Counted from the first letter of the stretch, positions 13,385 through 64,000 are shown. The stretch is 64,000 nt of DNA from Candidatus Fervidifonticultor tertius (GCA_031459235.1 JAVKIY010000001.1:56708-120707), one strand, 5' to 3'. The notes: generated from the letters alone by a model not told the origin. Numbers and translations: made by a program.

Positions 13385-13449
13385 GAGCAGGCGTCAACCG
13401 GGGGAGCCGGACGTGTACGCCGGCCCCCCGGAGTCATAACCGTCAAGCG

Positions 13450-15300: not shown

Positions 15301-15309
15301 TGCTACAAT
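15301..15309 (+). promoter_or_regulatory. extended -10 promoter element (TGcTACAAT) upstream of the mutase gene
   Basis: TGC+TACAAT at 15301-15309, 40 nt before ATG 15349, which is preceded by AGGAG. Confidence 0.3.
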
Positions 15310-15348
15310 ACCCACAAGAGCCAACCCCCTCGCCCAGGAGCGCCGCCC

Positions 15349-16956
<1,608 letters not shown>

Positions 16957-19898: not shown

Positions 19899-19984
19899 TG
19901 GCTGCTCCCTCGTGGAGTTCTTCCCCACGGCATCCTGCCACGGACCGGCTGGCCGGCGCGGTCCCTGAATGATACAACCTAACC

Positions 19985-46990: not shown

Positions 46991-47017
46991 GCGCGTGCTC
47001 CTCTCGCCCCCGGGCGC

Positions 47018-48433
47018 CTAGCGGGTCGAGCGATCCTCCCAGAGCTTCTCCATCTGCTCGCCGAAGTAGTACCGGTCCACGTGGTCCTGCTTGATGCGCT
47101 TGAGCTCGCCGCGCGGGAAGTGCGAGAGCAGCCGCCAGCCGGTGGCCAGGGTCTCCTCGATCGTCCGGTCGGTCTGGCCCTGCCCGATGAACTCGCGCTC
47201 GAACTCCTCGGCGAACTTCAGGTAGAGGCGGTCGCGCTCGGTGAGCGCCTCCTCGCCGATGATCGCGACCAGGCGCCGGAGGTCCACGCCGTTGGCGTAG
47301 GAGGCGAAGAGCTGGTCCTTGACATTGGAGTGGTCGGCGCGCGTGCGCCCCTCGCCGATGCCGTCGTTCATCAGCCGCGACAGGCTGGGCAGCGGGTTGA
47401 TCGGGGGGTAGATGCCGTTGCGGTGGAGCGCGCGGCTCAGCACGATCTGCCCCTCGGTGATGTAGCCGGTCAGGTCGGGGATGGGGTGCGTGATGTCGTC
47501 GTCGGGCATGGTGAGGATCGGAAGCTGGGTGATCGAGCCCTTGCGGCCCAGCACGCGGCCAGCGCGCTCGTAGATCGTCGCAAGGTCGGTGTACATGTAG
47601 CCGGGGTAGCCGCGCCGGCCCGGGATCTCCTCGCGTGCGGCGCCGATCTCACGAAGCGCTTCGCAGTAATTCGTCATGTCCGTGAGGATCACCAGCACCT
47701 GCATGTCGAGCTCGAACGCCAGGTACTCCGCGGTCGTCAGGGCCATCCGCGGCGTCAGCAGCCGCTCGATCGCGGGGTCGTCGGCCAAATTGAGGAACAC
47801 GACGCTGCGCGCGAGCGCGCCGGTCGCCTCGAACTGCTCGATGAAGTAGGCGGCCTCGCGCTGCGTGATCCCCATGGCCGCGAACACGACCGAGAACTCC
47901 TCCGCGGCGCCGAGCACCTTCGCCTGGCGCGCGATCTGCGCCGCGATCTCGTTGTGGGGCAGGCCGGCGCCGGAGAAGATCGGCAGCTTCTGGCCGCGCA
48001 CGAGCGTGTTGAGCCCGTCGATGGTCGAGATGCCGGTCTGGATGAACTCCTTGGGTCGCTCGCGGGCCACCGGGTTGATCGGCGAGCCCACGATCGGCAG
48101 CCGCTTCTCGGGGATGATCGGGGGGAGCCCGTCGATGGGCTCGCCCAGGCCGCTGAACCGCCGGCCGATCATCTCCCGCGAGACGCCGATGCGCGCCACG
48201 TCCTCGCGCAGGCTCACCGAGGTCCGCGCCAGGTCCAGCCCGGCGGTCTCCTCGAACACCTGGATAACCGCGTTCCGCTCGGAGACCTCAATGACCTGGC
48301 CGCCGCGCACCCCGCCGTCGGGCAAGTGGATGTTGACGATCGCGCCGTAGGCCAGGTCCTGCGCGCCCTCGACGAACAGCAGGGGCCCCGAGATGTAGGA
48401 AATCGACTGGTACTGCTTGGTGGCCAGCGACAT
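47018..48433 (-). CDS. atpB: V/A-type ATP synthase subunit B
   Basis: 471 aa non-catalytic subunit; [21 protein letters not shown]. Confidence 0.95.
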
Positions 48434-48437
48434 GGCC

Positions 48438-50198
48438 CTACGCTCCTTCCGCCGCGGCCTTCGCGCCGAAGGCCTCCGGCAGCCGCGTCATCCACGCGTC
48501 GATGTACGCCTTGAACCGATCGTTGGGCACTTCCTTCATGCGGGCGATCTCCTCGAGCTGCGGCAGGTTGAGGATCTCGTCCATGAGCATGCCGCGCCGG
48601 AGCGCCGCGGATGCCTCGTCGTAGAACGTCAGGATCGCCCGGAGCATCCCGTACGCCTTCTCCAGCGAGCAGTACGCGTCCACCTCGGAGAACGACGACT
48701 GCTGGAGGAAGTCCTCGCGCAGCATCTTACCGGCCTCGATGATCAGCCGTTGATCGTCCTGGAGCGCGTCGGGACCCACGAGCTGCACGATCTCCTGGAG
48801 CTCCGCCTCGCGCTGCAACAACGCCGAGGCGCGGTCGCGCAGCACGGTAAAGTCCTCGGGCATGTTGTCCCGGTACCAGTCGCGGAACAACGGCATGTAG
48901 AGGCTATAGGACCGCAGCCAGTGAATCGCCGGGAAGTGGCGACGGTTCGCCAGGCCGGCGTCCAGGGACCAGAACGTGCCGGTGATGCGCAACGTTGCCT
49001 GCGTCACAGGTTCGGAGAGGTCGCCGCCCGGCGGCGAAACCGCGCCGATGACCGTGACCGACCCGTTGCGCTCCGGCGCGCCCAGGCAGACGGCGCGGCC
49101 GGCGCGCTCGTAGAACGCGGCCAAGCGGCTCGACAGGTAGGGTGGGTAGCCCTCCTCGGCGGGCATCTCCTCCAGCCGGGAGGAGATCTCCCGCATCGCC
49201 TCGGCCCAGCGGCTCGTGGAGTCCGCCATCAGGGCGACCTTGTAGCCCTGGTCGCGCCAGTACTCGGCCATGGTGATGCCGGTGTAGACCGAGGCCTCGC
49301 GCGCGGCCACCGGCATGTTGGACGTGTTGGCGATGATGATCGTCCGCTCCATCAGCGGCCGGCCGCTGCGCGGGTCCTCCAGCTCCGGGAACTCGTCGAG
49401 CACGTGTGTCATCTCATTGCCGCGCTCGCCGCACCCCACGTAGATGATCACGTCGGCGTTCGACCACTTGGCCAGCGTCTGCTGCATGACCGTCTTGCCC
49501 GATCCGAACGGGCCGGGGATGGCCGCCGCGCCGCCCATGGCCACGGGGAACAGCACGTCGATGATCCGCTGCCCGGAGATGAACGGCTCGCGCGGATCGA
49601 GCTTGCGCGCGACCGGCCGCGCGGTCCGCACCGGCCAGGTATGCGCCAGGCGCAGCTCGGTCCCGTCGGCGAGCCGCGCGATGACCTCCTCCACGGTGAC
49701 CTCGCCGGCGCGGATCTCCGCGAGACGGCCGCCGCGGACGTCCGGGGGTACCATGATCCGGTGCTCGAACCCGAACTCGCGCACCACGCCGAGGGTGTCG
49801 CCAGGCCCGAGTGCGGCGCCCTGCTGCACGCGCGGCTCGAATGCCCACCGCTTCTCGCGGTCGAGCGCACGGGCCGCGGCCCCGCGCGCGATGAAGTCGC
49901 CGGTCTGGCTCCGCACGCTCTGGAGCGGCCGCTGGATGCCGTCGTAGATGCCGGTCAGCAGGCCGGGCCCGAGCTCGAGCGAGAGCGGCGCGCCGGTGCT
50001 GGTCGCGGGCTCACCCACCCGGAGTCCCGAGGTGTCCTCGTAGACCTGGATGAACGCATCGGGGCCGTCCAGGCGGATGATCTCGCCCAGCAGGCCCTCG
50101 CTCCCGACGCGGACCAGGTCGTACATGCGCGCGCCCGGGATGCCGCGCGCGATGACCGCCGGCCCCGCGATACGGATGATCGTGCCCTGGCTCGACAT
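48438..50198 (-). CDS. atpA: V/A-type ATP synthase catalytic subunit A
   Basis: 586 aa; GPFGSGKT P-loop and non-homologous insert region. Confidence 0.95.
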
Positions 50199-50217
50199 GC
50201 CGGTCCCTCCGATGCCG

Positions 50218-50535
50218 CTACCGCAGCTTCACGTAGAACCCGATGTGCTCCTTGACCAGCCGGGCGACGTACGCCTCGCCGCTCTCGATCTCGGCCTGCG
50301 GCGCCGGGACCGGGACGATGATCGGGAGGTCGCGGCCGCGCAGCAGCCGGGCCCGCTCGTCCTCCGTGCCCTCGAGCAACCGCTCGTTGATGGCGATCAG
50401 GCCGTAGTCGAGCGAGACGAAGTGGCGCAGGTGCTCCAGCGCCTCCTGCGGGGTGGCGGCCTCGCGGACCTCCACGCCCGCCAGCCGGAAGCCTGTGGCG
50501 CTCTCGCTGTCCGTGACGACCGCCAGCCTATACAC
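50218..50535 (-). CDS. atpF: V/A-type ATP synthase subunit F
   Basis: 105 aa; position between C and A and typical sequence ([20 protein letters not shown]). Confidence 0.7.
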
Positions 50536-51553
50536 GGACCATCTCCCGCCTGACCAGCTCGCGCGGCAGGCCGAGCAGCACCCCGCGCGCGATCAGCCGG
50601 AGGTTGGCGACCTCGGCCGACTTCATCGTCAGGTAGCCGGTCACGATGTCCAACCCGAGCGGGTCGCCCCGCACGTACCGCTGGGCGAGCGTGGCCGCCA
50701 TCGCCGCGTCCAGCGTCCGCTCGAACGCCACCAGGTCGCGGGGCAGCTCCTTCACGGGAAACCCCTGTGCCCGCAGCCGCGCCCACGCCCGCGCCTGGCG
50801 GCCCTCGTCGGAGAGGTCCAGGAAGAGTCGGTCGGTGACCAGCGCCCCGCCCGGGGTGAAGAACCGCAGCCGCTGTTCGTCGGGCAGGCCGGCAGGCGCG
50901 AGCTTGAGCGCCGTCTTGACGTTGGCGGCGTCGAGCTCGGCGGTGAGGATCTCGCGGAGCGCTCGGGCGCCAGCACCGCGCGCCTGGCGGAGCACGTACT
51001 CGGCGTACGCCCGCTCCAGGCTGAGCTCGATCGCCAGCGGGTCGTTCGTGCGCGCGTCCTCGGCGACGCCGGCGGCCAGCGCCGGCGCGAGCGGGTGGTT
51101 GACCACCTCCAGCGCGCCGGCGAGCGCGGTCATCGTGGGCGAGCCCGCCATTTCCCGGAGCACACCTTCCCCGAGCGTCCCGGCCGGAATCACCGCCTCG
51201 AGGGTTTCCCCGGCCGACCGGCCGGCGTGTCGGCCGCGGACGATCGCGCGCAGGTTCGCCAGGTCCCATCGCAGCAGCAGGATGGTGATGAGCCGGTGCG
51301 GCGGCCCGTCGGCGAACTCAAGGATGCGCCGCGTGGTGCGCTGGAGGTTACGCGCCAGCGCGTCATCCACCGCGCGCACGCCCTCGTACCGTGTCAGGGC
51401 CTCCTGGAGGTCGTGCCCGTAGGGCGTGGCGGCGAGGGCCTGGATGAGGGCCGGCAGCGAGGCGGCGGCGAGCAAATCCTCCAGCTGCGTCGGCGCGAGC
51501 AGGCGGCCGCGCATCGCGCGCACCCTGGCGTTGATGTACGGAAAGTCAGGCAC
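50528..51553 (-). CDS. atpC: V/A-type ATP synthase subunit C (eukaryotic d homolog)
   Basis: 341 aa; YINARVRAMRGRLL N-terminus typical. Confidence 0.75.
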   Translation of the reverse strand: MPDFPYINARVRAMRGRLLAPTQLEDLLAAASLPALIQALAATPYGHDLQEALTRYEGVRAVDDALARNLQRTTRRILEFADGPPHRLITILLLRWDLANLRAIVRGRHAGRSAGETLEAVIPAGTLGEGVLREMAGSPTMTALAGALEVVNHPLAPALAAGVAEDARTNDPLAIELSLERAYAEYVLRQARGAGARALREILTAELDAANVKTALKLAPAGLPDEQRLRFFTPGGALVTDRLFLDLSDEGRQARAWARLRAQGFPVKELPRDLVAFERTLDAAMAATLAQRYVRGDPLGLDIVTGYLTMKSAEVANLRLIARGVLLGLPRELVRREMVRV

Positions 51554-51562
51554 CGCGGCCCT

Positions 51563-52144
51563 CTACTCCCACAGGATGCGCGCCACCTCCGCGGCCAGCA
51601 TCGGGCGCGCCCGCTCCAGGCGTGAGGCCAGGGTGTTGGTCACGACGAACCGGCCGTCGGGGGTGGCGACCCGCGCGCCACCGCGCACGGCCGGGTCGGT
51701 GCGGACCGTGACCTCCGCCCGGCCGCGCACGACCGCCTCGGCGGCGGCCGCGTCGTCGGGGTTGACCGTGACCACCGCGGGGCCCCGGACCCCGCGCAGC
51801 CCCTCGTCGATGAAGGCCCGCAGCACATCGGGATAGCGCTGCGCGTCGCCCGCCACGCGGGCCAGCTCCTCCTCGGCCTGCGCGAACACCCGGGCGATCT
51901 CCTCTTCCTTCGCCTGGAGAATCAGGGATGCCGCGCGGAGCTGCGCGGTGCTCTGCGCCTTGACGAGCGCCGCACGGGTCTCCGCCTCGAGGCGCTCCCG
52001 CGCCGCCGCGAGGTAGGTCTCCGCCTCGCGCCGAGCGCGGTCGCGGATCTCCTCCGCCTGCGCCCGCGCGTCGGCGAGCACCTGCTCACGCTCGGCCGCG
52101 GCCTCGCGCTCGAGCAGCGTAATGAGCTCGGAGGACGTCGCCAC
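51563..52144 (-). CDS. atpE: V/A-type ATP synthase subunit E
   Basis: 193 aa charged helical protein at the E position. Confidence 0.7.
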   Translation of the reverse strand: MATSSELITLLEREAAAEREQVLADARAQAEEIRDRARREAETYLAAARERLEAETRAALVKAQSTAQLRAASLILQAKEEEIARVFAQAEEELARVAGDAQRYPDVLRAFIDEGLRGVRGPAVVTVNPDDAAAAEAVVRGRAEVTVRTDPAVRGGARVATPDGRFVVTNTLASRLERARPMLAAEVARILWE

Positions 52145-52151
52145 CGCAGCC

Positions 52152-52481
52152 TCAGATCTTGCCGAGGATGAAGAACGCCACCAGGAAGCCGAAGATGATC
52201 ATCGTCTCGGGCAGGACCAGGAAAATGAGCATCTGGCCACCGATCTCCGGCCGCTCCGCCATCGCTCCTGCGGCGGCCGCGCCGATGCGCGACATCGCCC
52301 ACGCGGTGCCCACCGCACCGAACGCTACCGCGAGCGCGGCCGCCAGGCCGAGCAGGCCGTGCGCCATGGTAATCGTCCGGGCACCCTCGGGCGCCGCCTC
52401 CGCGGCGCACGCCGCCGACGCGCCGAGCAGCACCAGGGTCGCCACCGCGACCACGGATGAGAGCTTCTTCAACCTAGTCAC
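52152..52481 (-). CDS. atpK: V/A-type ATP synthase proteolipid subunit K
   Basis: Hydrophobic hairpin protein with conserved Glu (LVLPETMII); the listed GTG sits immediately after the AGGAG RBS, so true start is probably the TTG at 52472, 1 nt after the atpI stop. Confidence 0.7.
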   Translation of the reverse strand: MTRLKKLSSVVAVATLVLLGASAACAAEAAPEGARTITMAHGLLGLAAALAVAFGAVGTAWAMSRIGAAAAGAMAERPEIGGQMLIFLVLPETMIIFGFLVAFFILGKI

Positions 52482-54423
52482 CTCCTGTTTTCTGGAGCGG
52501 GCGGTACGAGTTGCCTGTTTCGTCGTGGTACTTCATCTTCGTTAGGAACTCCACCCAGTTGAGACGGGCGGGCTGAATGAGGTGGCCCGGCAACGTGAAC
52601 AGGAAGAAGATCATCTGTATCAGGATGCCGGCGATGATGCCGACCCAAACCGGCCCCAGCCGCCCTCCGAGTTCGTTCGACACGTTCGCGAGCACCGCCG
52701 CGGCCAGGCCGACCCCGAACAACCGCGCGTAGGACAGGACGTTCCCCATGCCGGAGATCGCCTCGAGCAGCCACATGGCCGCGAAGCGGTCCAGGGCGAA
52801 ACCGGCCAGGAAGAACACGAAGAACGCGATCAGGAGCACCAGCCCGGGGGCGAAGAAGGTCCGTGGCAGCTCGTTGCCCATCGCGCCGAGCAGGACGACC
52901 AAGCCGACCACGCCGCAGATGAGGGCGAGGGATTCGAGCACGCCCACCGTGTGCCGGTGCCGCAGGGCGATGAGGAGATGCAGGATGTTGCCCAACGTCA
53001 CCTGGACGACACCCAGCGCGACCGCGAACTTGAAGAACGCGGTGGCGAGCTCGATGCGGTGGAAGATGGGATGCCACCCCGTGGCGTGCTCCACCAGATC
53101 GCCGAAGATCTCGAGGTAGAGCACCCCGAAGAGCATCGTCCACACCGCCATCACCCGGATGATCCACGAGACGTCCGCCAGGACCGGCGGCGTCATGCGC
53201 AGACGGACTACCGGCACGATCCACGCCGCACCCCCGCGCGCCTTGTTGCGCAAGAACCACCCGACAGAGAACAGGATCGCCCCGTACGCCACGTCGCCGA
53301 TGACGATCCCGACGAACAGCGGGAAGAACAGCGCCAGGGCGAGCGTGGGGTCGAGCGACCCATAACGCGGCGGCTTGAACAGCCCAAGCAGCCGCTGGAA
53401 AGGCTTGATCGCGGGCGGGTTGTCCAGCAGCACCGGCACCTCGGCCGCGCGGTGCGGATCGGCTGGCGCCTCCTCCACCACGACATCGCCGCCGAAGCGC
53501 GCGCGCAGCGCCGCGCGCAGGTCGCCGACCTGGGCCGTCGGCGTCCAGCCGTGCAGGATGAAGACGTAGTGGGACGCGCCGAGCTGGGCCGCCGCGTGGA
53601 GCTGCGCGAGCCGGTCGGCGACCAGCGCCCGCAGCCCATCGATCACCGGGCGGTGGCGGCGCGCGGCCTCGGCGAGCGCGGCCTCGGCCTCGGCCCGCTC
53701 GCCCGGGAGCGCGGCGCGGCGTTGCTCCATCAGCCTGATCGCCTCGGCCGGACCGCCCTCGGCGTACCGCGCGGGCAGCCGCAGCTCGGCGATGCCGGCC
53801 CGGGAGAGGAACCCGCGTACCGCGTCTGCGTCCCGCTTGAGGAACGCGACGACGACCCCGATCTTGCCCTCGTCGATCGCCCGGCTGACGACCTCGACGC
53901 GGCCGTCGGTCAGCTCGCGGAGCTGGTTGTGCACCGCGGCCACGACGGTCAGGTCGCGGCCGCGCAGGATGAAGCCCACGCTCTCGAGCGCGCGGCTGCC
54001 CGCCAGGGCGTCCATCAGCGGGGCGAGGGCGCGGACCGCGCCCTCGTACGTGCGGATGAGCTCAAACTCCTCGTCCAGCTCCAGCCGGCGGCGGCTCAGC
54101 CCGTGGACCTCGGCCTCCACCGCGGCCACGGCGGCTTCCACCGCGTCCAGGTCGTCGGCGGCCGGCAGCGCCGGGACCGCGGCGGCGGGCTCCCCGCCCG
54201 AGGGCGGGAGCAGCCCGGCCAGGCCATCGAGGCGCGCGTGCAGCGCCTCCAGCCGCGCCTGCTCCGCGCGCGCATGGTCATCGAGGGCCAGGGCGCGGAT
54301 GGCGTCGTCGTCGGTCTCGATACGGTCGATGTGCACCGCACCCACGCGCTGCACCTCGTCGATGACCCCGTTGAGCAGCCGCCTGGGGCCGACGATCAGC
54401 AGGCGGGACATCTCAACGATCAT
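52474..54423 (-). CDS. atpI: V/A-type ATP synthase subunit I (a-subunit homolog)
   Basis: 649 aa; N-terminal soluble coiled-coil half and C-terminal multi-TM half. Confidence 0.85.
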   Translation of the reverse strand: MIVEMSRLLIVGPRRLLNGVIDEVQRVGAVHIDRIETDDDAIRALALDDHARAEQARLEALHARLDGLAGLLPPSGGEPAAAVPALPAADDLDAVEAAVAAVEAEVHGLSRRRLELDEEFELIRTYEGAVRALAPLMDALAGSRALESVGFILRGRDLTVVAAVHNQLRELTDGRVEVVSRAIDEGKIGVVVAFLKRDADAVRGFLSRAGIAELRLPARYAEGGPAEAIRLMEQRRAALPGERAEAEAALAEAARRHRPVIDGLRALVADRLAQLHAAAQLGASHYVFILHGWTPTAQVGDLRAALRARFGGDVVVEEAPADPHRAAEVPVLLDNPPAIKPFQRLLGLFKPPRYGSLDPTLALALFFPLFVGIVIGDVAYGAILFSVGWFLRNKARGGAAWIVPVVRLRMTPPVLADVSWIIRVMAVWTMLFGVLYLEIFGDLVEHATGWHPIFHRIELATAFFKFAVALGVVQVTLGNILHLLIALRHRHTVGVLESLALICGVVGLVVLLGAMGNELPRTFFAPGLVLLIAFFVFFLAGFALDRFAAMWLLEAISGMGNVLSYARLFGVGLAAAVLANVSNELGGRLGPVWVGIIAGILIQMIFFLFTLPGHLIQPARLNWVEFLTKMKYHDETGNSYRPLQKTGGD

Positions 54424-54444
54424 CCGCTCAGCCTCCGCGCACGC

Positions 54445-54801
54445 TCAACCGCCAACGACGCGCTCGACGACCGCGCGGACCGCGGCCGCCGTGCGGCCCG
54501 CGGCCTGGCGCCGCAGCGCCTCGACCTCCGCGGTCGCCTTCGCTTCGGCGTCCTGCTGGACGCGCGCGGCTTCGGCCGCGGCGCGTTCGCCGTACTCGGC
54601 GGACAGCGCGGCGGCCCGCTCACGGGCCTCGCGGAGCATCCGCTCGGCGTCCACGCGGGCCTGGGCGATGAGCGCCTCGGCCTCGCGCCGCGCCGCGCCG
54701 ACCTGGGCCTGGAGTTCACGTTCCTTCTGAGCGATGAGGTGCAGGAGATTGTCGTGACTGTGGCGGTCGCCCCCGTGCCCTGCTGGCTTCTGCGCCCCCA
54801 T
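54445..54801 (-). CDS. atpG: V/A-type ATP synthase peripheral-stalk subunit G/H
   Basis: 118 aa coiled-coil protein from ATG 54801; first gene of the operon, as in Thermus atpG. Confidence 0.5.
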   Translation of the reverse strand: MGAQKPAGHGGDRHSHDNLLHLIAQKERELQAQVGAARREAEALIAQARVDAERMLREARERAAALSAEYGERAAAEAARVQQDAEAKATAEVEALRRQAAGRTAAAVRAVVERVVGG

Positions 54802-54826
54802 TTGTGACGGTCCCCTTGGGAAAGCC

Positions 54827-54850
54827 TCACACGAAACCCCCAGGACAGGC
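54827..54850 (-). terminator. GC hairpin (CCCCCAGG-N8-CCTGGGGG) followed by UUUCGUGUG between nuoN and the V-ATPase operon
   Basis: Read directly; could end the nuo transcript or structure the ATPase 5' UTR. Confidence 0.3.
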
Positions 54851-54971
54851 GCCCTGGGGGCCCACTGCAGGTCGAGGATAGCAGAGGGTCCCCTGACCGT
54901 CAAGGCAAGGCGGATGCGGTGCGGCGCGGGTTTCCACGCACGGACGGGGCGCCGCGCACGGGCGCGGGCGC

Positions 54972-56411
54972 CTAGAACCGAAGCAGCAGCGACGCCGCGG
55001 ACACCAGGGTGACGAACGGCTGGGGAAACAGGCCGGCGGCGAGCGTGCCCAAGCCGGTGATGCCGAGCGCGAGCTGCAGCGCTGCGGGCTGGCCCACCGG
55101 CCCCGCGGAGGCCGGTGGCATCAGGAACATCGCCCGGATGACCCCCACGTAGTAGTACAGCGCGATCACACTGTTGACCACACCGATTGCCGCCAGCCAG
55201 ATGAGCCCGTTCTGGACCGCCGCCCCGAAGATGTAGAACTTCCCGACGAACCCCGCCGTCGGCGGGATGCCGGTGAGCGAGAGCATGAACAGCGCCATCA
55301 GCCAGGCCAGCGCGGGGGCGCGCTCGCCCAGCCCGGCATAGGCCGGAATGTCGTCGGTGCCCAGGCGCTGGCCCACCGTCACCGCGACGAAGAACGCGCC
55401 CAGATTGGTGAACGCGTACGCCAGGATGTAGTACAGCAGCCCCTGGGCGAACTCACCGGCGTAGGCGGCCACGCCCATGAGCAGGAAGCCGGCGTGCGAG
55501 ATGCTGGAGTAGGCCAGCATGCGCTTGATGTTGCGCTGCGGCAGCGCCAGCAGGTTCCCGACCGTCATGGTGACCGCGGACAGTCCCGCGATCAGCGTGA
55601 TCCAGTCCACCGGCGCCGAGGCGAACGCCACGGCCAGCAGCCGCAGGAGCACCGCGAAGCCGGCGGCCTTGGAGGCGACCGACAGGAACGCCGCGACCGG
55701 GGTGGGCGCGCCCTCGTAAACATCGGGGGTCCACTGGTGGAAGGGGACCATCGAGACCTTGAACCCGATGCCGGCCAGGGCCATCACCAGCGCCACCACC
55801 ACCGCCGGCCGGGGTGCGCCGCTGAGCGCGGAGGCGATCGCGTAGAGGCTCGTCTGCCCGGTGAGGCCGTAGAGGATCGAGAAGCCATAGATCATCACCG
55901 CCGAGGCCCCGGCGCCGAACAGGAAGTACTTGAGCCCGGCCTCGTTGCCCCGGCGGTCCGCCTTGAAGTACCCCGCCATGACGTACGAGCACAGGCTCAC
56001 GAACTCGATCGACAGCACGACCATGATCAGGTCGGCGCTCCCGGCCATCAGGCTGAGGCCCAGCGCGGTGAAGGTGAGCAGGATGTACATCTCGCCTTCG
56101 AACTGCGTCTGCCCCCGCAGCACGTCCATCGCCGAAAGGATCACCAGCACCGTGGACGCGACCGCGACAATCTTGAAGAAGATGGCGAACCCGTCCACGA
56201 CGTAGGTGCCGAAGAAGACCGTCCGCGGCGTGACCCCGACCAGGCCCAGGATGGGCACCAGGCCGAGGGTGAGTCCCGCCGCCGCCGCCCAGCCCACGAT
56301 CGCCTTGCGGCCGCTGGGGACGAACAGGTCCAGCACGAGCAGCAGCAGGCCGAGCCCCGCGAGCCAGATCTCGGGGCTGACGGCCCAGAGGTCCTCAATC
56401 GGCAGCGGCAT
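54972..56411 (-). CDS. nuoN: NADH-quinone oxidoreductase subunit N
   Basis: 479 aa, about 14 TM antiporter-like subunit. Confidence 0.9.
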   Translation of the reverse strand: MPLPIEDLWAVSPEIWLAGLGLLLLVLDLFVPSGRKAIVGWAAAAGLTLGLVPILGLVGVTPRTVFFGTYVVDGFAIFFKIVAVASTVLVILSAMDVLRGQTQFEGEMYILLTFTALGLSLMAGSADLIMVVLSIEFVSLCSYVMAGYFKADRRGNEAGLKYFLFGAGASAVMIYGFSILYGLTGQTSLYAIASALSGAPRPAVVVALVMALAGIGFKVSMVPFHQWTPDVYEGAPTPVAAFLSVASKAAGFAVLLRLLAVAFASAPVDWITLIAGLSAVTMTVGNLLALPQRNIKRMLAYSSISHAGFLLMGVAAYAGEFAQGLLYYILAYAFTNLGAFFVAVTVGQRLGTDDIPAYAGLGERAPALAWLMALFMLSLTGIPPTAGFVGKFYIFGAAVQNGLIWLAAIGVVNSVIALYYYVGVIRAMFLMPPASAGPVGQPAALQLALGITGLGTLAAGLFPQPFVTLVSAASLLLRF

Positions 56412-56420
56412 CGGTGGCGC

Positions 56421-57929
56421 CTACCGCAGGACCGTGACCAGGCTGGCCATGGCGGCGTTGATGACCTCGAGCAGCGGCCGCGGGTAGACACCGAAGACGA
56501 GCATGATGGCCGCGAGCGGCACGAGCGAGACCGCTTCGCGGCCGTCCAGGTCGGGCAGCGCGGCCCACCGTGGGTTCTTCGGGCCGAGGAAGATGCGCTG
56601 GATGGTCCACAGGAACATGGCCGCGGAGAACACGACCCCGGTCACCGCGATCACCGTGAGCTCGGGGAAGATCCCGAACGACCCGACGAAGATCAAAAAC
56701 TCCGCCACGAACCCCATGAGCCCGGGCAGGCCCAGCGAGGCCAGCATCGCCATCATGGTGATCCCGCTGTACCTCGGGAGCACCGCGCCGAGCCCGCCGA
56801 AGTCGTCCACGCCCCGCGTGTGCGCCCGGTAGTCGTAGATGACACCCACGATGAGGAACAGCGCGCCCGTGATGATGCCGTGCGCCACCATCTCGAAGAC
56901 CGCGCCGTTCAGCGCCAGGGTGGCCGCGCCGGCCCGCTCCGGGGCACCCACCGCGCCAGCGGCTGCGGCCACGCCCAGCATCACGTAACCCATGTGGTTC
57001 ACGCTGGAGTAGGCGACCAGCTTCTTGAGGTCGGGCTGGGCCATCGCGACAAGGGCGCCGTAGACCACGCCGATGACCGCCAGGATCGCCACGACGGGCG
57101 CGTACTCCCGGAACGTCTCGGGGAGCATCGGGAGGCTGATCCGCACGAACCCGTAGGTGCCCAGCTTCAGCAGCACCCCGGCCAGGATGACGCTGCCCGC
57201 GGTGGGGGCCTCGACGTGCGCGTCGGGGAGCCAGGTGTGGAACGGCCACATCGGCACCTTGATCGCGAACGCCAGGAAGAACCCCCAGAACGCCAGCGAC
57301 GCCAACAACGGCGCGCGCGCCAGCGGCTGCTGCCCGATCAACTCCAGGATGCCGAACGTCCGCGGCTCCGCGTTGAAGTAGAGCAGCAAGATGGCCAGCA
57401 ACATCGCGAGCGAGCCCACCAGGGTATAGAGGAAGAACTTGATGGCCGCGTACTCCTTGCGCGGGCCGCCCCAGATGCCGATCAGGAAGTACATCGGGAC
57501 GATCGACACTTCCCAGAACACGAAGAACAGGAAGAAGTCCAGGGCGGCGAACACGCCGACCATCGCGGTCTCGAGCAGGAGGAAGAGGAACAGGTACTCC
57601 TTGACGCGCACGTCCACGCGCCAGGAGTAGACGATCGAGAGCACCGTGAGGAGCGTGGTCAGGATGACCAGCGGCAGGCTCAGCCCGTCGATGCCGACGT
57701 GGTAGTGGACACCGATCGCCGGGATCCAGGCGTAGCGCTCCTGGAGCTGCATCTCCGCGCCGCCGACCTGGAAGGGCCCCAGCAGCCACAGGGAGACCAG
57801 GAACGCGAGCGCCGCGGTCGCCAGCGCGACCTGCCGCATCAGGCGCTCCTGGCCCTTGGGGATCAGCAGGACGATCAACCCGCCCACCAGCGGCAGGAAG
57901 ATCGTGATGCTCAACAGGTACCGGTCCAT
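56421..57929 (-). CDS. nuoM: NADH-quinone oxidoreductase subunit M
   Basis: 502 aa antiporter-like subunit. Confidence 0.9.
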   Translation of the reverse strand: MDRYLLSITIFLPLVGGLIVLLIPKGQERLMRQVALATAALAFLVSLWLLGPFQVGGAEMQLQERYAWIPAIGVHYHVGIDGLSLPLVILTTLLTVLSIVYSWRVDVRVKEYLFLFLLLETAMVGVFAALDFFLFFVFWEVSIVPMYFLIGIWGGPRKEYAAIKFFLYTLVGSLAMLLAILLLYFNAEPRTFGILELIGQQPLARAPLLASLAFWGFFLAFAIKVPMWPFHTWLPDAHVEAPTAGSVILAGVLLKLGTYGFVRISLPMLPETFREYAPVVAILAVIGVVYGALVAMAQPDLKKLVAYSSVNHMGYVMLGVAAAAGAVGAPERAGAATLALNGAVFEMVAHGIITGALFLIVGVIYDYRAHTRGVDDFGGLGAVLPRYSGITMMAMLASLGLPGLMGFVAEFLIFVGSFGIFPELTVIAVTGVVFSAAMFLWTIQRIFLGPKNPRWAALPDLDGREAVSLVPLAAIMLVFGVYPRPLLEVINAAMASLVTVLR

Positions 57930-57957
57930 CCGCCTCCCGTCCCCCTCCGCCCGGCCG

Positions 57958-59901
57958 CTACCGGAACAGGCCCGCGGCGAGCAGCACGATGACCCCGAGC
58001 GCGATCGCCAGCAGGTAGTTCTGCGCGCGGCCGGTCTGCACGTACCGGAGCACGCCGCCGGCGGTCTGCGCGATCCAGCCCAGTAGGTTCACGGCTCCGT
58101 CCACGACGTACAGGTCGAAGACCCGGTACAGTCGCGCCAGACCCAGGCCGGCGAAGCCGAACAGGTTCACGATCAGGTCGATCACGTAGACGTCGAAGGT
58201 CCTTAGCGCCCGGGCGACCGCGAGCGTCGGCCGGACGACCGCCGCCGCGTAGAGTTCGTCGAAGTAGTACTTGTGGGCCACCAGGGTGAACAGCGGGCCC
58301 GCGGCGCGCCGCAGGGCCCCCGACGGCACGACCTTCCAGTGGTAGACCGCCGCGGCGGCGGCGATGCCCGCGCCGGAGGCGCCCACGCCCGCGAGCGCCA
58401 CGCCCCAGCTGAACGCCGGGGCCTTGAGGCCCTCGAAGTGCAGGTAGTGGTGGAACGGGTTCCCCAGAAACGGCGCGCCGACCAGGCCGATGCCCGCCGA
58501 GAAGACCGCCAGCACCCACAGGGGCCGGGTCATGACCGCCGGGCTCTCGTGCGGGTGGGCGTGGTGCGACCGCGTCGTGCCGGCGAAGGTGTAGAAGATC
58601 ACCCGGAACATGTAGAACGCCGTCAGGAACGCCGCCGCCAGGGCCATCGCGTACAGCCCCCGGTGGTGGTGGAACGCCTCGAGCAGGATCTCGTCCTTAC
58701 TCCAGAAGCCGGCGAACGGCGGCACGCCGGCCAGCGCCAGCGTGCCGATCAAGAACGTCCAGTAGGTGGACGGCATGGCGCGCGCCAGGCCGCCCATCGC
58801 CTTGATGTCGTTGGTGTGCATCGCGTGGATCACGCTGCCGGCGCCCAGGAACAGCAAGGCCTTGAAGAAGGCGTGCGTCATCAGGTGGAACATGCCGGCC
58901 GCGTACCCGAGCATGCCCAGGCCGAGCATCATGTACCCGAGCTGGCTGATCGTCGAGTAGGCGAGCACGCGCTTGATGTCGTCCTGCACGACGGCGATCG
59001 TGGCCGCCATGAGCGCGGTGACCGCGCCGATCCACGCGACCACCGTGAGCGCCCCGTGCCCCGGTGACTCGAAGAACAGCAGGTAGGTCCGCGCGACCAT
59101 GTACACGCCGGCGGCCACCATGGTCGCGGCGTGGATGAGCGCGGACACCGGCGTCGGGCCCTCCATGGCATCGGGCAACCAGGTGTGCAGCGGCACCTGG
59201 GCCGATTTACCGATCGCCCCGCCGAAGAGGAGCACCGCGACCACGGTGAGCAGCGGCAGCCCGCCCACCATCATCCCCTCGAGCGCCCCGGCGTGCACCT
59301 TCGCGAAGATCTCCTCGAACCGGAACGTGCCCAGGGTGAAGAAGACCAGCAGGATGCCCAGGAACATGAAGAGGTCGCCGACGCGCGTCGTGACGAACGC
59401 CTTCATCGACGCGCGCGCGGCCGACGGCTTCTCGAAGTAGAACCCGATGAGCAGGTAGGAGCACAGCCCCACCAGCTCCCACCCGGCGTAGAGGAACAGC
59501 AGGTTGTTCGCGAGCACGAGCAGCAGCATCGACGCCGCGAAAAGCGACAGGTAGGCGAAGAAGCGGGAGAACCGCGGGTCGTCGTGCATGTACCCGACGG
59601 AGTAGACGAAGATCATCGACCCGACGATCGTGACCACGAGCAGCATGACGGTGGTCAGGTTGTCCACCCGCAGGCCCAGGTCGAGCGCCGTCTGACCGTA
59701 GGGCACCCAGCGCACGTTGAGCTCGTGGGCCTTTGCGCCCCCCAGCCCCTCGACGAAGATGCCGATCGACAGCAGCGCGGCCAGCCCGATGCCGGCGATG
59801 GCCACGTAGGCGCCCCGGCCCGGCAGCCTCGGCCCGAAGGCGAAGATGAGGGCGCAGGCGACCAGCGGCAGGACCGGGATCAGCCAGGCCAGCTCACGCA
59901 T
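57958..59901 (-). CDS. nuoL: NADH-quinone oxidoreductase subunit L
   Basis: 647 aa; antiporter-like core plus C-terminal lateral helix region. Confidence 0.9.
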   Translation of the reverse strand: MRELAWLIPVLPLVACALIFAFGPRLPGRGAYVAIAGIGLAALLSIGIFVEGLGGAKAHELNVRWVPYGQTALDLGLRVDNLTTVMLLVVTIVGSMIFVYSVGYMHDDPRFSRFFAYLSLFAASMLLLVLANNLLFLYAGWELVGLCSYLLIGFYFEKPSAARASMKAFVTTRVGDLFMFLGILLVFFTLGTFRFEEIFAKVHAGALEGMMVGGLPLLTVVAVLLFGGAIGKSAQVPLHTWLPDAMEGPTPVSALIHAATMVAAGVYMVARTYLLFFESPGHGALTVVAWIGAVTALMAATIAVVQDDIKRVLAYSTISQLGYMMLGLGMLGYAAGMFHLMTHAFFKALLFLGAGSVIHAMHTNDIKAMGGLARAMPSTYWTFLIGTLALAGVPPFAGFWSKDEILLEAFHHHRGLYAMALAAAFLTAFYMFRVIFYTFAGTTRSHHAHPHESPAVMTRPLWVLAVFSAGIGLVGAPFLGNPFHHYLHFEGLKAPAFSWGVALAGVGASGAGIAAAAAVYHWKVVPSGALRRAAGPLFTLVAHKYYFDELYAAAVVRPTLAVARALRTFDVYVIDLIVNLFGFAGLGLARLYRVFDLYVVDGAVNLLGWIAQTAGGVLRYVQTGRAQNYLLAIALGVIVLLAAGLFR

Positions 59902-59904
59902 CGG

Positions 59905-60216
59905 CTACCACTTCATGACGTTGATCTCGTCGACGTGGACGGTCTCCAGGTTCCGGTAGGCCGACATGACCAGCGCGAGACCCACGCCCGCCTCGCAGGC
60001 GGCCAGCGTGATGACCACCAGCGCGAACACCTGCCCGTTGAGCGCCCCGGGGGCGACGTACTTGTTGAACGCCACGAGGTTGATGTTCGCGGCGTTGAGC
60101 ATGAGCTCGACACCCATCAGGATCGCCACCGCGTTCCGCCGGGTGAGCATGGCGAACAGCCCCAGGCAGAACAGCAGCGTCGAGAGGACCAGGAAGTGCG
60201 TCAGGCCCAGCGTCAC
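59905..60216 (-). CDS. nuoK: NADH-quinone oxidoreductase subunit K
   Basis: 103 aa, 3 TM, conserved Glu residues. Confidence 0.9.
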   Translation of the reverse strand: MTLGLTHFLVLSTLLFCLGLFAMLTRRNAVAILMGVELMLNAANINLVAFNKYVAPGALNGQVFALVVITLAACEAGVGLALVMSAYRNLETVHVDEINVMKW

Positions 60217-60226
60217 GGACGCCTCC

Positions 60227-60718
60227 CTACCGCTCCCGCCGCGCGATAACGATCGCGCCCATCAGCGCGACCAGCAGGACGAAGCTGGTCACGATGAAGA
60301 CCAGGATGGCGCTGGTCAGGAACGTCGTGCCGATGGACGTGGCGGTGTACTGGGGCAGCGTCCCCGCCGCGCGCGGCCACGCGGTCCCGAAGAACACGGC
60401 CATCAGCAGGGCAGCCAGCACCGCCACCGCGATCGTGCCGGGCAGCACCTGCTCGTTGACCTGCCGGAACCGCGCGCCCGTGCCGTGCTCGGTGAGCATG
60501 ATGACGAACAGGATGAGGACGGTGATGGCGCCCGCGTAGATCAAGACCTGGATGCCCGCCACGTACTCGGCCTGCAGCAGGATGTAGACCCCCGCGATCC
60601 CCAGCAGCGTCGGGATGAGCGACAGGGCGCTGCGGACGATGTTCTGCGAGGCGACCACGACGACCGCCGAGACGAGGGTCACCACCGACAGGATGATGAA
60701 CGCGGCGAGCTGTCCCAT
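60227..60718 (-). CDS. nuoJ: NADH-quinone oxidoreductase subunit J
   Basis: 163 aa from ATG 60718 (MGQLAAFIILSVVTLVSAVVVV). Confidence 0.8.
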   Translation of the reverse strand: MGQLAAFIILSVVTLVSAVVVVASQNIVRSALSLIPTLLGIAGVYILLQAEYVAGIQVLIYAGAITVLILFVIMLTEHGTGARFRQVNEQVLPGTIAVAVLAALLMAVFFGTAWPRAAGTLPQYTATSIGTTFLTSAILVFIVTSFVLLVALMGAIVIARRER

Positions 60719-60720
60719 GG

Positions 60721-61701
60721 CTAGAAGGTGACCCGGTACCCCGTAATGAGGATCCAGACCAGACCCGCGGGAAGCAGGACCTTCCACGACAGGTTGAGGA
60801 GCTGGTCGAGCCGGTAGCGCGGGTAGGTCCAGCGTACCCACATCAGCAGGAACACGATCAGGTACATCTTGAGGAGGAACCAGACGACCCCCGGCAGCAC
60901 CGGGCCCTTCCACCCGCCCAGGAACAGCGTGGTCGCCATGGCCGCCATGGCGAACATCTCGCCGTACTCGCCGAGCTGGAAGAGCGCGAAGCGCATGCCG
61001 GTATACTCGGAGAAGTACCCCGCCACCAACTCGGACTCGGCCTCGGGCAGGTCGAAGGGCACGCGGTTCACCTCGGCGGTGGCCGCGATCAGGAAGATCA
61101 CGAAGGCCGGGAACTGCCGGAAGGCGAACGAACCGAACCACCCCGCCTGCGCCTCCACGATGCCGACCGTCGAGAGCGTGCCCGCCTCCATCGCGACGGC
61201 GATCAGGGCCATCGCCAGCGGCAGCTCGTAGCTGATCATCTGCGAGGCCGACCGCAACCCGCCGAGCAGGGCGTACTTGTTGTTGGACGCGAAGCCGCCG
61301 GCCAGGATGCCGACGACCGTGAGCGAGGCCATGGCGGCGAAGAAGACGACGCCGATGTTGAGGTCGCGCACCACCAGCACGCGGTCGCCGAGCGTCCCGA
61401 AGGGGATCACCACCCAGCTCATCAACCCCGCCACCGCCACCACCAGCGGCGCGGTGTTGAAGATGGCGCGGTCGGCCGCGCGGGGCTCGATGTGCTCCTT
61501 CTGGAGGAGCTTGATCGTGTCCGCCACAGTCTGCAGGAGCCCCTGCGGCCCGACGTGCTTGGGCCCCAGGCGCGACTGGATCCAGCCGCCGACCTTCCGC
61601 TCGAGCAGCACGCCGAACATGGCCGCCACCACGGCCATGAAGGTGAAGACCGCCGCGGTCAGCAGCACGGCGCGAACGATCTCGAGCGGCCAGTTCACCA
61701 T
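60721..61701 (-). CDS. nuoH: NADH-quinone oxidoreductase subunit H
   Basis: 326 aa; GPQGLLQTVADTIKLLQKE and EYTGMRFALF motifs. Confidence 0.9.
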   Translation of the reverse strand: MVNWPLEIVRAVLLTAAVFTFMAVVAAMFGVLLERKVGGWIQSRLGPKHVGPQGLLQTVADTIKLLQKEHIEPRAADRAIFNTAPLVVAVAGLMSWVVIPFGTLGDRVLVVRDLNIGVVFFAAMASLTVVGILAGGFASNNKYALLGGLRSASQMISYELPLAMALIAVAMEAGTLSTVGIVEAQAGWFGSFAFRQFPAFVIFLIAATAEVNRVPFDLPEAESELVAGYFSEYTGMRFALFQLGEYGEMFAMAAMATTLFLGGWKGPVLPGVVWFLLKMYLIVFLLMWVRWTYPRYRLDQLLNLSWKVLLPAGLVWILITGYRVTF

Positions 61702-61713
61702 GCGCGGCCGGCC

Positions 61714-62073
61714 CTACGTCCACTCCAGGGCGCCCTTGCGCCAGGCGTGGATCAGCCCCAGCAGCAGGATGCCCACGAAGATCAGCATGACGAAGAAGGC
61801 ATAGCGGCCGTACTGTCGGAACACGATCGACCAGGGGTAGAGGTAGATCACCTCGACGTCGAAGATGACGAAGACCAGCGAGAACAGGTAGTAGCGCACG
61901 TTGAACTGCGCCCACGCCTGCCCGAACGGCACGACCCCGGACTCGTAGGTGGTGCGCTTCTGCGGCTGCGCCAGGCGCGGCGCCAGGGCCCAGACGACGG
62001 CCAGCGGCAGGGCGGCCATCGCCAGACCCACGACGAGGAACACGCCCACGTAGAGCCAGTCAACCAGCAGCAT
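61714..62073 (-). CDS. nuoA: NADH-quinone oxidoreductase subunit A
   Basis: 119 aa, 3 TM, TTYESGVVPFGQAWAQFNVRYYLF. Confidence 0.85.
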   Translation of the reverse strand: MLLVDWLYVGVFLVVGLAMAALPLAVVWALAPRLAQPQKRTTYESGVVPFGQAWAQFNVRYYLFSLVFVIFDVEVIYLYPWSIVFRQYGRYAFFVMLIFVGILLLGLIHAWRKGALEWT

Positions 62074-62226: not shown

Positions 62227-63573
62227 CTACGGCCGACCGGCCACCGGCATGCGGCGGTCGGGCGCCGGCCGCCCGGCGGCACCCATCACCCGGAGCACGG
62301 CGGCGGCCAGGCGGAGCGGGTCGTGGCGGAGCAGCTCCGCCTCGCTCATCAGGCCGGCGCCCAGCGGCGCCAGGCCCATCGCCTCCAGCTCCTCCAGCGC
62401 CGGATCCACGGGGCGGCTTCCCTGGTCGGCGTACCGATCCAGCAGGGCGCGGTTCCGCGGCGGCGTGGTGTTGACCAGCACATGGCCGAAGAGCGCCGCG
62501 CCGGCGTGCGCGTGGATGGCGCGTACGTGGTCGGCCGCGGTGTAACCGTCGGTCTCGCCCGGCTGGGTCATGACGTTGCAGACATAGACGCAGGGCACCT
62601 GCGCCTCGCGGATCGCCTCCGCGATGCCGCGGACCAGCAGGGTGGGAATCACGCTGGTGTACAGGCTGCCCGGGCCGATGACGATCAGGTCGGCCTCGGC
62701 GATGGCCTCCAGCACCTCGGGGAGCGGGTAGACTTCATCCGGCCGCAGGAACACGCGCCGGATGCGCCGCCGGGCCGCGGTGATGTTCGACTCGCCCTCC
62801 ACCACCCCGCCGTCCTCGAACTGGGCCACCAGCACGACGTCGTGGCCCGTGGCCGGCAGCACGCGGCCGCGGATGTTGAGGACCTTGCTCGTCTCCTTGA
62901 CGGCCATCTCCACATCGCCCGTGACGCCGGTCAGGCTGGCGATGAAGAGGTTGCCGAAGGCGTGGCCGTCGAGCGCGCCGCCCTTGAAGCGATACTCGAA
63001 CAGCCGGGTCATCAGCGGCTCGGACTCGGCGAGCGCCACCAGGCAGTGCCGGATATCGCCCGGCGGCAGGATGCCGAGTTCGCGGCGCAGCCGGCCCGAG
63101 GAGCCGCCGTCGTCGAAGACGGTGACCACCGCGGTGATGTTCGAGGTGTGGTGCTTCAGCCCGCGCAGCAGCGTGGCCAGCCCGGTCCCGCCGCCGAGCG
63201 CGACGACATGCAGGCCGCGTCGCCGCCGGCGGCGCTCGCGCAGCTCCTCGACGATCGTGGTGCTGCCGGAGGGGAAGAGCACGCGGTCGATGGACCGCAA
63301 CACGCCGCGCAGTCCCAGCGCCACCAGCGCCAGCCCGGCCCCGAGCCCGAGTGTGCCGAGCCACAGCGGCGTCAGGCGCCCGCCCGTGGCCTCGCCCGCC
63401 CGGCCGGCCAGCCGCTCCACCGCCGCCTCGTAGGCGGCGAGCACGCCGACCTCGGCGAGCAAGGAGAACCCCGCGCCGAATAGGAGCAACCCGAGCCCGA
63501 TGAGCAGGCCCCAGCGCTTGATGCCGATGCCCGGCGTCAACCAGCGCAGCCAGCGTCGGAGCTGATCGCTCAC
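62227..63573 (-). CDS. yvcK: gluconeogenesis factor YvcK family protein (UPF0052), with N-terminal TM extension
   Basis: 448 aa; LRRWLRWLTPGIGIKRW start and VVALGGGTG / PGSLYTS motifs. Confidence 0.8.
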   Translation of the reverse strand: MSDQLRRWLRWLTPGIGIKRWGLLIGLGLLLFGAGFSLLAEVGVLAAYEAAVERLAGRAGEATGGRLTPLWLGTLGLGAGLALVALGLRGVLRSIDRVLFPSGSTTIVEELRERRRRRRGLHVVALGGGTGLATLLRGLKHHTSNITAVVTVFDDGGSSGRLRRELGILPPGDIRHCLVALAESEPLMTRLFEYRFKGGALDGHAFGNLFIASLTGVTGDVEMAVKETSKVLNIRGRVLPATGHDVVLVAQFEDGGVVEGESNITAARRRIRRVFLRPDEVYPLPEVLEAIAEADLIVIGPGSLYTSVIPTLLVRGIAEAIREAQVPCVYVCNVMTQPGETDGYTAADHVRAIHAHAGAALFGHVLVNTTPPRNRALLDRYADQGSRPVDPALEELEAMGLAPLGAGLMSEAELLRHDPLRLAAAVLRVMGAAGRPAPDRRMPVAGRP

Positions 63574-64000
63574 GACGCCGCCTCCGCCTCGCCGTTGCGG
63601 CGCAGGTCGCGGTGCCGCACCCGCACGCGGTACCCCAGGCGCCTGAGCTGCCGGCCGAGCAGGTCGCCGAGGACCACCGAGCGATGACGGCCGCCGGTGC
63701 AGCCCACGCCGATGGTGAGGTGGGTCTTGCCCTCCTGCACGAACCGCGGGAGCAGGTAAGCGGCGAACTCACGGAGCCGGCCCACGAACTCGCGCGTCTC
63801 GGGCTGGCCCAGCACGAATCGCCGCACCCGCGGGTGCGTGCCGGGCAGCGGCCGCAGCGCCTCGTGGTAGTGCGGGTTCGGGAGGAACCGGACGTCGAAC
63901 AGCAGGTCGGCGTCGATCGGGATGCCGTACTTGTACCCGAAGGTAACGATGCTGACCGTAAGCGGCGGCGCGGCGCCCCGGCCGGTCGGGTAGGCGCCGG
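63570..64000 (-). CDS. rapZ: RNase adapter RapZ / YvcJ P-loop protein, C-terminal part (5' end beyond window)
   Basis: Minus-strand frame reads ...FGYKYGIPIDADLLFDVRFLPNPHY...GCTGGRHRSV... to the window edge; the ORF-track M at 63827 is internal. Confidence 0.8.
   Translation of the reverse strand, partial: GAYPTGRGAAPPLTVSIVTFGYKYGIPIDADLLFDVRFLPNPHYHEALRPLPGTHPRVRRFVLGQPETREFVGRLREFAAYLLPRFVQEGKTHLTIGVGCTGGRHRSVVLGDLLGRQLRRLGYRVRVRHRDLRRNGEAEAAS

Follow-up and report, generated by a model that had tools for sequence, protein, structure and literature searches.

A complex I membrane-arm operon without peripheral-arm genes, fixed between yvcK and the V/A-type ATPase operon across Sysuimicrobiota

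Operons in which the membrane-arm genes of respiratory complex I stand apart from those of the peripheral arm are known from Chloroflexi and from actinomycetes. In the Chloroflexi that carry the 2M form of complex I, the membrane-arm genes have an operon of their own, away from nuoBCDI (Chadwick et al. 2018, as cited in PMC7117926), and a seven-gene "partial NDH-1/nuo operon" was described in 2012 in Salinispora (PMC3314556) and later in Kocuria and the marine Streptomyces SM17 and SM18 (PMC6676996), where it has been read as an ion pump for marine adaptation (PMC3314556, PMC6676996). Here we analyze a cluster of seven membrane-arm genes, nuoA-H-J-K-L-M-N, in a stretch of 64,000 nucleotides from Candidatus Fervidifonticultor tertius (GCA_031459235.1, JAVKIY010000001.1:56708-120707), hereafter called the window. 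The cluster is an ordinary operon split, conserved in the phylum and of an already described kind, and we find no evidence for a new enzyme.

An earlier note on this DNA had placed the seven genes at 54972-62073, and open reading frames (ORFs), Pfam and NCBIfam models agree with that placement, on the minus strand:

61714-62073, minus strand: nuoA, 119 amino acids (aa); PF00507, E=2.5e-34; top NCBIfam match NuoA NF005839
60721-61701, minus strand: nuoH, 326 aa; PF00146, E=1.9e-117; NuoH equivalog NF004741, 351 bits against a cutoff of 305
60227-60718, minus strand: nuoJ, 163 aa; PF00499, E=1.4e-32; occupies the usual position of nuoI, after nuoH
59905-60216, minus strand: nuoK, 103 aa; PF00420; NF004322, 129.8 bits against a cutoff of 128
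57958-59901, minus strand: nuoL, antiporter-like subunit of 647 aa with lateral helix and C-terminal anchor helix; NF005141, 701.9 bits against a cutoff of 556; TIGR01974, 666
56421-57929, minus strand: nuoM, 502 aa, the single nuoM of the cluster; TIGR01972, 595.9 bits against a cutoff of 263.8
54972-56411, minus strand: nuoN, 479 aa; TIGR01770, 406.8 bits against a cutoff of 332.6

The intergenic gaps are 12 bp (A/H), 2 bp (H/J), 10 bp (J/K), 3 bp (K/L), 28 bp (L/M) and 9 bp (M/N), the first two being exactly the figures given before. All seven proteins score far above the Pfam gathering scores; NuoH, NuoK, NuoL, NuoM and NuoN also exceed the curated NCBIfam cutoffs, while NuoA and NuoJ have Nuo models as their best match, below the equivalog cutoffs. 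Searches with the Nuo proteins of E. coli K-12 (tblastn) matched membrane subunits A, H, J, K, L, M and N and gave no match to nuoB, C, D, E, F, G or I across the 64-kb window (E<=0.01). Pfam scans of about 55 further window ORFs with coding-type bias in third-position G+C likewise found no peripheral-arm family of complex I (the G+C content of the window is ~70%), so that the absence of nuoB-G and nuoI claimed by the note is borne out by both approaches. The cluster is a true seven-gene operon for the membrane arm, or P-module, of respiratory complex I.

Membership of related enzyme families was considered and rejected. The NCBIfam models specific for F420H2 dehydrogenase (Fpo) score below their cutoffs (FpoH 286 against 475, FpoK 115 against 145, FpoL 489 against 1050, FpoJ 24 against 110) and in every case below the Nuo models, and Pfam scans found no FpoF-like gene in the window. 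Cyanobacterial and plastid NDH-1 has its complex I genes spread over several loci, without nuoEFG, and in cyanobacteria the seven membrane genes are not known to be kept together. Its scattered genes and lack of nuoEFG, and the ndh orthology identifiers (KOs) that KEGG gives to some Sysuimicrobiota subunits, are the points of likeness; the window cluster differs in keeping the seven genes together and in scoring under the cutoff of all equivalog models for the cyanobacterial type of NAD(P)H-quinone oxidoreductase (NF006303, 86.8 against 145; NF005626, 598 against 963; NF009212, 422 against 645; NF002701, 392 against 569).

The window comes from a hot-spring bacterium; the genus Fervidifonticultor belongs to the family Humicultoraceae of the phylum Sysuimicrobiota, GTDB CSP1-3 (PMC11604079). 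The 80 loci recovered with NuoH were taken together with 10 kb of sequence on either side, and their nuo genes were mapped by tblastn. The NuoH of the window is identical to proteins in two NCBI metagenome-assembled genomes (MAGs), GCA_031081715.1 and GCA_031458995.1, which are labelled "Armatimonadota bacterium", and its best matches among species representatives are Ca. Fervidifonticultor sextus (90%), quartus (87%), secundus (86%) and quintus (84%). The order A-H-J-K-L-M-N is found, as far as the contigs reach, in 46 of 46 Sysuimicrobiota-type loci (L001-L047, L049), with NuoH identities of 61-100%; these span Fervidifonticultor, Geohabitans, Calidihabitans, Thermofontivivens, Sysuimicrobium, Tepidifontimicrobium, soil genomes labelled "ANGP1" and long-read MAGs labelled "Firmicutes". 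No match to nuoB, nuoC, nuoD or nuoI was obtained by tblastn within the 10-kb flanks of any of the 46, and the split, which the note had proposed to look for in close relatives, is common to all of them. It is embedded in a larger block, the other parts of which are laid out as follows in the window:

63570-64000 (window end), minus strand: rapZ, 3' part, upstream of yvcK
62227-63573, minus strand: CofD/YvcK-family gene (yvcK), upstream of nuoA; Pfam PF01933/PF22740 for this gene and rapZ as a pair
46349-54903, minus strand: V/A-type ATPase operon, downstream of nuoN (Pfam), with the nine genes below
54445-54903, minus strand: V/A-ATPase G-like subunit
52474-54423, minus strand: V/A-ATPase subunit I
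52152-52481, minus strand: V/A-ATPase subunit c
51563-52144, minus strand: V/A-ATPase subunit E
50528-51553, minus strand: V/A-ATPase subunit C
50218-50535, minus strand: V/A-ATPase subunit F
48438-50198, minus strand: V/A-ATPase subunit A
47018-48433, minus strand: V/A-ATPase subunit B
46349-46990, minus strand: V/A-ATPase subunit D

The rapZ-yvcK pair lies upstream of nuoA in nearly all Sysuimicrobiota-type loci, and the V/A-ATPase operon, which begins 68 bp past nuoN in the window, follows nuoN in every locus whose contig is long enough; the block rapZ-yvcK-nuoAHJKLMN-V/A-ATPase is conserved phylum-wide. Since the order is shared on independent contigs and the whole block is conserved, the split is old and fixed; 46 independent contigs carry this gene order, its gaps measuring 2-28 bp, which rules out an artefact of assembly or binning. 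The separation of the two arms would predate the diversification of the phylum and would have been fixed ever since between yvcK and the V/A-ATPase operon. The accessible part of the KO table for the phylum lists V/A-type ATPase subunits and none of the F-type (PMC11604079). Beyond the V/A-ATPase operon, Pfam identifies DUF881 and DUF1290 genes and then the genes gap and pgk. A scan for promoter and terminator consensus sequences gave nothing above shuffled expectation.

Two variants among these loci deserve mention. In GCA_031458995.1 (L002, 7016-9186) nuoL is called as two ORFs of 103 and 586 aa, the DNA being otherwise the same locus as in the window, and the interruption is probably a frameshift or an assembly error. 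In some Sysuimicrobiota families NuoH is longer (~370-395 aa against 326), as seen in L032, L034 and L035 (match of 1113 nt) and in L046 and L047 (1179 nt, in split alignment segments). The C-terminal third contains an insertion that accounts for the difference, and database proteins P0098-P0120 may represent the same variant.

The functional state of the arm was evaluated by aligning every subunit with its E. coli homologue and all recovered relatives, at positions established in work on complex I (E. coli numbering, checked against the E. coli sequence). Conserved in the window are E144, K229, K342, K399, D400, H334, H338, D178 and R175 of NuoL; E144, K234, K265, E407, H322 and H348 of NuoM; E133, K217, K247, K395 and E154 of NuoN; E36 and E72 of NuoK; D79 and E81 of NuoA; and Y59 of NuoJ. 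NuoH retains all 12 of the charged residues examined (E36, R37, K70, E71, E157, R209, D213, E216, E220, E228, R293 and K303). Every residue that the relatives also keep is conserved in the window proteins (36/36), and the sole differing position, NuoJ E80, is not kept by the relatives either. Across the phylum (37-48 Sysuimicrobiota sequences per subunit) the pump and channel residues of NuoL, M, N, K, A and H are near-invariant. At the C-terminus of NuoL, a KYYFDELY motif, a QTGR motif and a hydrophobic final helix align with the start of the lateral helix and the last transmembrane helix of the E. coli protein. The charged residues of NuoH line the quinone cavity and the E-channel and serve the interface with the Q-module (nuoB, C, D, I); their invariance argues for an arm that still operates together with a Q-module and against a free-standing antiporter. 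As judged from sequence, the pattern argues against a membrane arm that has lost its Q-module.

One feature of the cluster departs from canonical complex I. The lateral helix of NuoL, taken as the stretch from KYYxDExY to QTGR, is 78 aa long in the window against 52-53 aa in canonical relatives, the 26 additional residues repeating the adjoining unit in tandem:

58042-58197, minus strand: tandem repeat of 2 x 26 residues in the NuoL lateral helix (from the translation)
58120-58197, minus strand: repeat copy 1, FDVYVIDLIVNLFGFAGLGLARLYRV
58042-58119, minus strand: repeat copy 2, FDLYVVDGAVNLLGWIAQTAGGVLRY

The two copies are identical at 10/26 positions in the window and at 17/26 in L037, and copy 1 is hydrophobic enough for a transmembrane-like score. 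Of 41 Sysuimicrobiota-type NuoL sequences, 29 carry the insertion; the 12 loci without it (L016, L020, L022, L024-L031 and L033, which are ANGP1 soil MAGs and their relatives) nevertheless share the split. Outside the phylum it recurs in L050, a MAG of Zixibacteria, and, with a helix lengthened to 83 aa, in L059. A lateral-helix insertion of 26 residues is described as a hallmark of 2M complex I, in which it has been proposed to allow the helix to reach across an additional, fourth pump (PMC9040806, PMC6606698). The window and all 46 related loci have one L, one M and one N; the cluster, which shows the NuoL insertion of ~26 residues and lacks the second nuoM, was not classed as 2M complex I. 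The duplication itself is a newly described detail.

The gene content, synteny and residue conservation reported above were observed directly; the presence and transcription of peripheral-arm genes in the phylum are taken from the literature. The KO counts per MAG in the first 45 columns of Table S5 of the phylum paper, all of them Sysuimicrobiaceae, give nuoB twice, nuoC plus ndhJ twice, nuoD plus ndhH twice and nuoI twice, with one each of nuoE, nuoF and nuoG (PMC11604079). Each membrane subunit is also counted twice when nuo and ndh KOs are summed, giving two sets of the 11 core subunits and, by these counts, two Q-modules for two membrane arms. One of the MAGs, HHBFW-2_201803_bins_120, corresponds to our locus L045, which shows the A-H-J-K-L-M-N cluster. 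In Table S7 of the same paper, the two MAGs of Fervidifonticultor tertius, the species of the window, each show non-zero transcript abundances for nuoA, B, C, D, E, F, G, H, I, J and K, and one of them does so for ndhC as well. The KO counts and the transcript table together place the peripheral arm elsewhere, and they lend indirect support to the view that genomes of the genus and phylum encode and transcribe Q-module genes and those of the N-module away from the cluster. The earlier note had left a choice between a peripheral arm encoded elsewhere and a different electron-input module of Fpo or NDH type; the first option is upheld, indirectly, by Tables S5 and S7, and, as regards the second, the NCBIfam scores given above speak against membership of Fpo or of cyanobacterial NDH-1.

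Most relatives outside the phylum (NuoH 44-54% identical) have a contiguous A-B-C-D-H-I-J-K-L-M-N operon without nuoEFG, and those closest to the window arm include L059, L048 and L051-L057, in which the identity of NuoM reaches 60%. L050 has the A-H-J-K-L-M-N arrangement, and together with L059 it is the closest outgroup for NuoK, L, M and N. As the closest of these contiguous operons encode 11 subunits and lack nuoEFG, the second option of the note may hold in one limited sense, with a Q-module of that kind as the partner of the window arm.

We consider it likely that the cluster encodes the P-module of a genuine complex I-type quinone oxidoreductase and that the genes for the matching Q-module are located at a different site in the genome. 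By analogy with canonical complex I, NuoH with NuoA, NuoJ and NuoK would provide the entry for quinone as well as the first proton path, and would dock the separately encoded NuoB, D, C and I, while NuoL, M and N would act as antiporter-like pumps tied together by the lateral helix of NuoL. As for the pairing of modules and the electron donor, we infer that the arm most likely belongs to an 11-subunit enzyme without nuoEFG, with ferredoxin as a possible donor, and not to a 14-subunit enzyme oxidising NADH, since the nearest contiguous relatives lack nuoEFG and the genomes have two core sets with one nuoEFG; this is the weakest step of the proposal.

Several points weigh against this interpretation. 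The Q-module genes were found in no verified Sysuimicrobiota contig, either in protein searches with the NuoD of L059 and with NuoD P0201 or in a search of 50%-identity representatives, and ten contig look-ups for NuoD, with hits ranked by amino-acid composition and clustered, led to other lineages only. The contigs recovered were those of true Armatimonadota (an F-type ATPase followed by nuoA(B)CD) or contiguous and interrupted 11-subunit operons without assignment to Sysuimicrobiota; the high-GC family of L087, L089 and L096, considered as the second operon of the phylum, was dropped because nothing anchors it to a Sysuimicrobiota assembly. For Humicultoraceae, the family of the window, the accessible evidence of PMC11604079 is the transcript table (Table S7) alone, and the KO counts of a MAG may run too high through mis-binning, or where generic ferredoxins are taken for nuoI. 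The assignment to an enzyme without nuoEFG has the gene content of the nearest relatives as its sole basis, and a duplication of 26 residues without a second nuoM is left unexplained by a plain three-pump complex.

The alternative that survives best is that the arm serves the 14-subunit, NADH-oxidising complex I, with nuoB, C, D, E, F, G and I together elsewhere and the second core set forming a separate, contiguous 11-subunit operon. Since each genome has a single nuoEFG alongside its two core sets, an NADH-oxidising enzyme must indeed be served by one or other of the arms, and the nuo KOs are all transcribed in Fervidifonticultor according to the accessible part of Table S7 (PMC11604079). 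Operons that join C-D-E-F-G to H-J-K-L-M-N without nuoB or nuoI, as in L060 and L081, further indicate that H/J junctions devoid of nuoI do occur in operons with nuoEFG. However, the closest contiguous relatives of the window cluster (L059, L048, L051-L057) are mostly 11-subunit operons without these genes, and none of the contigs looked up links nuoEFG to a Q-module of Sysuimicrobiota, leaving this alternative less probable than the reading above.

A second alternative takes the NuoL extension at face value: a fourth large subunit encoded outside the operon, be it an antiporter-like protein from an unlinked gene or an unrelated partner, would dock under the additional 26 residues and raise the H+/e- ratio, and Sysuimicrobiota, the related Zixibacteria and L059 would assemble a four-pump or extended complex I from at least three loci, namely the arm, the Q-module and the extra subunit. 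The length and position of the insertion, its presence in most Sysuimicrobiota-type NuoL sequences as well as in L050 and L059, and the unlinked nuoBCDI of the Chloroflexi 2M clade, as described in PMC7117926, are all in line with such an enzyme. On the other side, the cluster has one nuoM, and no further antiporter-like gene of the PF00361 type was found in the 64-kb window, within 10 kb of the 46 loci or downstream in L059 and L050. The counts in the accessible columns of Table S5 (two L, two M and two N for two arms) leave no spare pump except MrpA/D (PMC11604079), and insertions without an extra NuoM are described in Ca. Manganitrophaceae (PMC9040806). We regard a fourth subunit as unlikely.

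That the cluster works as a stand-alone, Mrp-like cation/proton antiporter without a redox module, as Penn and Jensen suggested when they proposed ion pumping for the equivalent seven-gene operon of Salinispora (PMC3314556), would agree with its content of membrane subunits only and its place next to an ATP synthase operon, but is highly improbable given the presence of NuoA, NuoJ and NuoH (the last without counterpart in Mrp), the phylum-wide invariance of the charged NuoH residues tested, which points to selection for a Q-module partner, Mrp models far under their cutoffs and, in the accessible part of PMC11604079, a matching number of Q-modules and arms by KO counts and a separate set of mrpA-G KOs.

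The premise of the earlier note that a non-contiguous nuo operon is unusual proved overstated, for split and membrane-arm-only clusters are already in the literature and further kinds of split were found among the relatives recovered here; in these lineages, which have been little studied, the splitting of nuo clusters is evidently widespread. The operons of L060 (24-12978, Eisenbacteria) and L081 (4235-16996, Calditrichia), with the order (A)-C-D-E-F-G-H-J-K-L-M-N, have A/C and H/J junctions too tight to accommodate nuoB or nuoI. True Armatimonadota MAGs show a different split of complex I, likewise adjoining an ATP synthase, in the form of a stand-alone nuoA-(B)-C-D (L084, 208-11101; L093, 1-11164; L085, 782-3229; L092, 8407-11173), which lies directly behind the F1Fo ATP synthase operon in L084 and L093 and is followed by PIN/TRAM and ispD/F genes in L084, L092 and L093; in L093 no nuoB is called between nuoA and nuoC. 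In two loci unrelated ORFs break the 11-subunit operon between nuoH and nuoI/J, namely a SASA-family gene and an unknown ORF in L095 (4075-7689) and, after a NuoH of 493 aa, an ORF of 354 aa without Pfam match in L099 (11183-13725).

Other operons of the set are unusual in what they add. On a MAG contig of 1.1 Mb (L068, 7331-20926), the matches to L and N within an operon of 11 genes, nuoABCDHIJKLMN, are fragmented, and another nuo operon (A-B-C-D-E...) begins immediately behind it. Deltaproteobacterial loci L051, L061, L070 and L077 (~12400-15800) have two NuoL-like genes in the order A-B-C-D-H-I-J-K-L-L-M-N, which recalls the "green" complex I with two MrpD described in PMC9040806. Genes for possible electron input directly follow the contiguous operons without nuoEFG in L096 (18507-21068), where etfB, a ferredoxin-fused etfA and a fixC-like gene come next, and in L097 (18882-21227), where pyruvate:ferredoxin oxidoreductase comes next.

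Elsewhere in the window, a minus-strand ORF of 608 aa without Pfam match (18282-20108) overlaps by ~120 bp the start of a plus-strand protein of 575 aa (19985-21712), in which a molybdopterin oxidoreductase domain is confined to the C-terminal half, and a flavoprotein resembling sulfide:quinone reductase is encoded at 33179-34324.

For a recently named, uncultivated phylum, our analysis adds a complex I arm placed beside the only ATP synthase and two core sets of complex I. It also adds that most Sysuimicrobiota NuoL proteins carry, without an extra nuoM, an extension so far tied to four-pump complexes; if a fourth subunit did exist, this would bear on how the stoichiometry of proton pumping is tuned in low-energy chemolithoautotrophs. 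The accessible main text of the phylum paper (PMC11604079) makes no comment on the membrane-arm split.

Among described systems, the partial nuo operon of actinomycetes is alike in having the same seven genes in the order nuoA-(H)-J-K-L-M-N and no peripheral-arm genes, a likeness drawn from gene order as described, there being no actinobacterial cluster among the 80 best NuoH loci. It differs in its patchy distribution, in having apparently been gained by horizontal transfer as an additional copy in genomes that also have a complete nuoA-N, and in the hypothetical ORF that follows its nuoA, whereas the window cluster is fixed in its phylum, occupies one syntenic position by the V/A-ATPase and is matched in number by Q-modules according to KO counts. 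The 2M complex I of Chloroflexi shares with it an operon of membrane-arm genes separate from nuoBCDI, and the NuoL of the window has the lateral-helix insertion of 26 residues; however, 2M is defined by a second nuoM (nuoL-M1-M2-N), of which the window has one, and the accessible part of the KO table for Sysuimicrobiota shows no fused nuoCD (PMC11604079), this comparison being based on published descriptions. The 11-subunit complex I without nuoEFG, nuoABCDHIJKLMN (Moparthi and Hagerhall 2011, PMC3144371), is the type found in the nearest contiguous relatives, from which the window operon differs by the removal of nuoB, C, D and nuoI. Complex_I_1 and Complex_I_2 of Ca. Manganitrophaceae similarly combine a 2M-type insertion in NuoL with the standard three pumps, yet these belong to the phylum Nitrospirota and their description, as far as accessible, reports no split of the Q-module (PMC9040806). 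The architecture is therefore a known one, and what is new is its occurrence and fixation in Sysuimicrobiota: the peripheral arm that seemed to be missing from the 64-kb window reflects an operon split fixed at the level of the phylum and similar in kind to those described before in Chloroflexi and actinomycetes.

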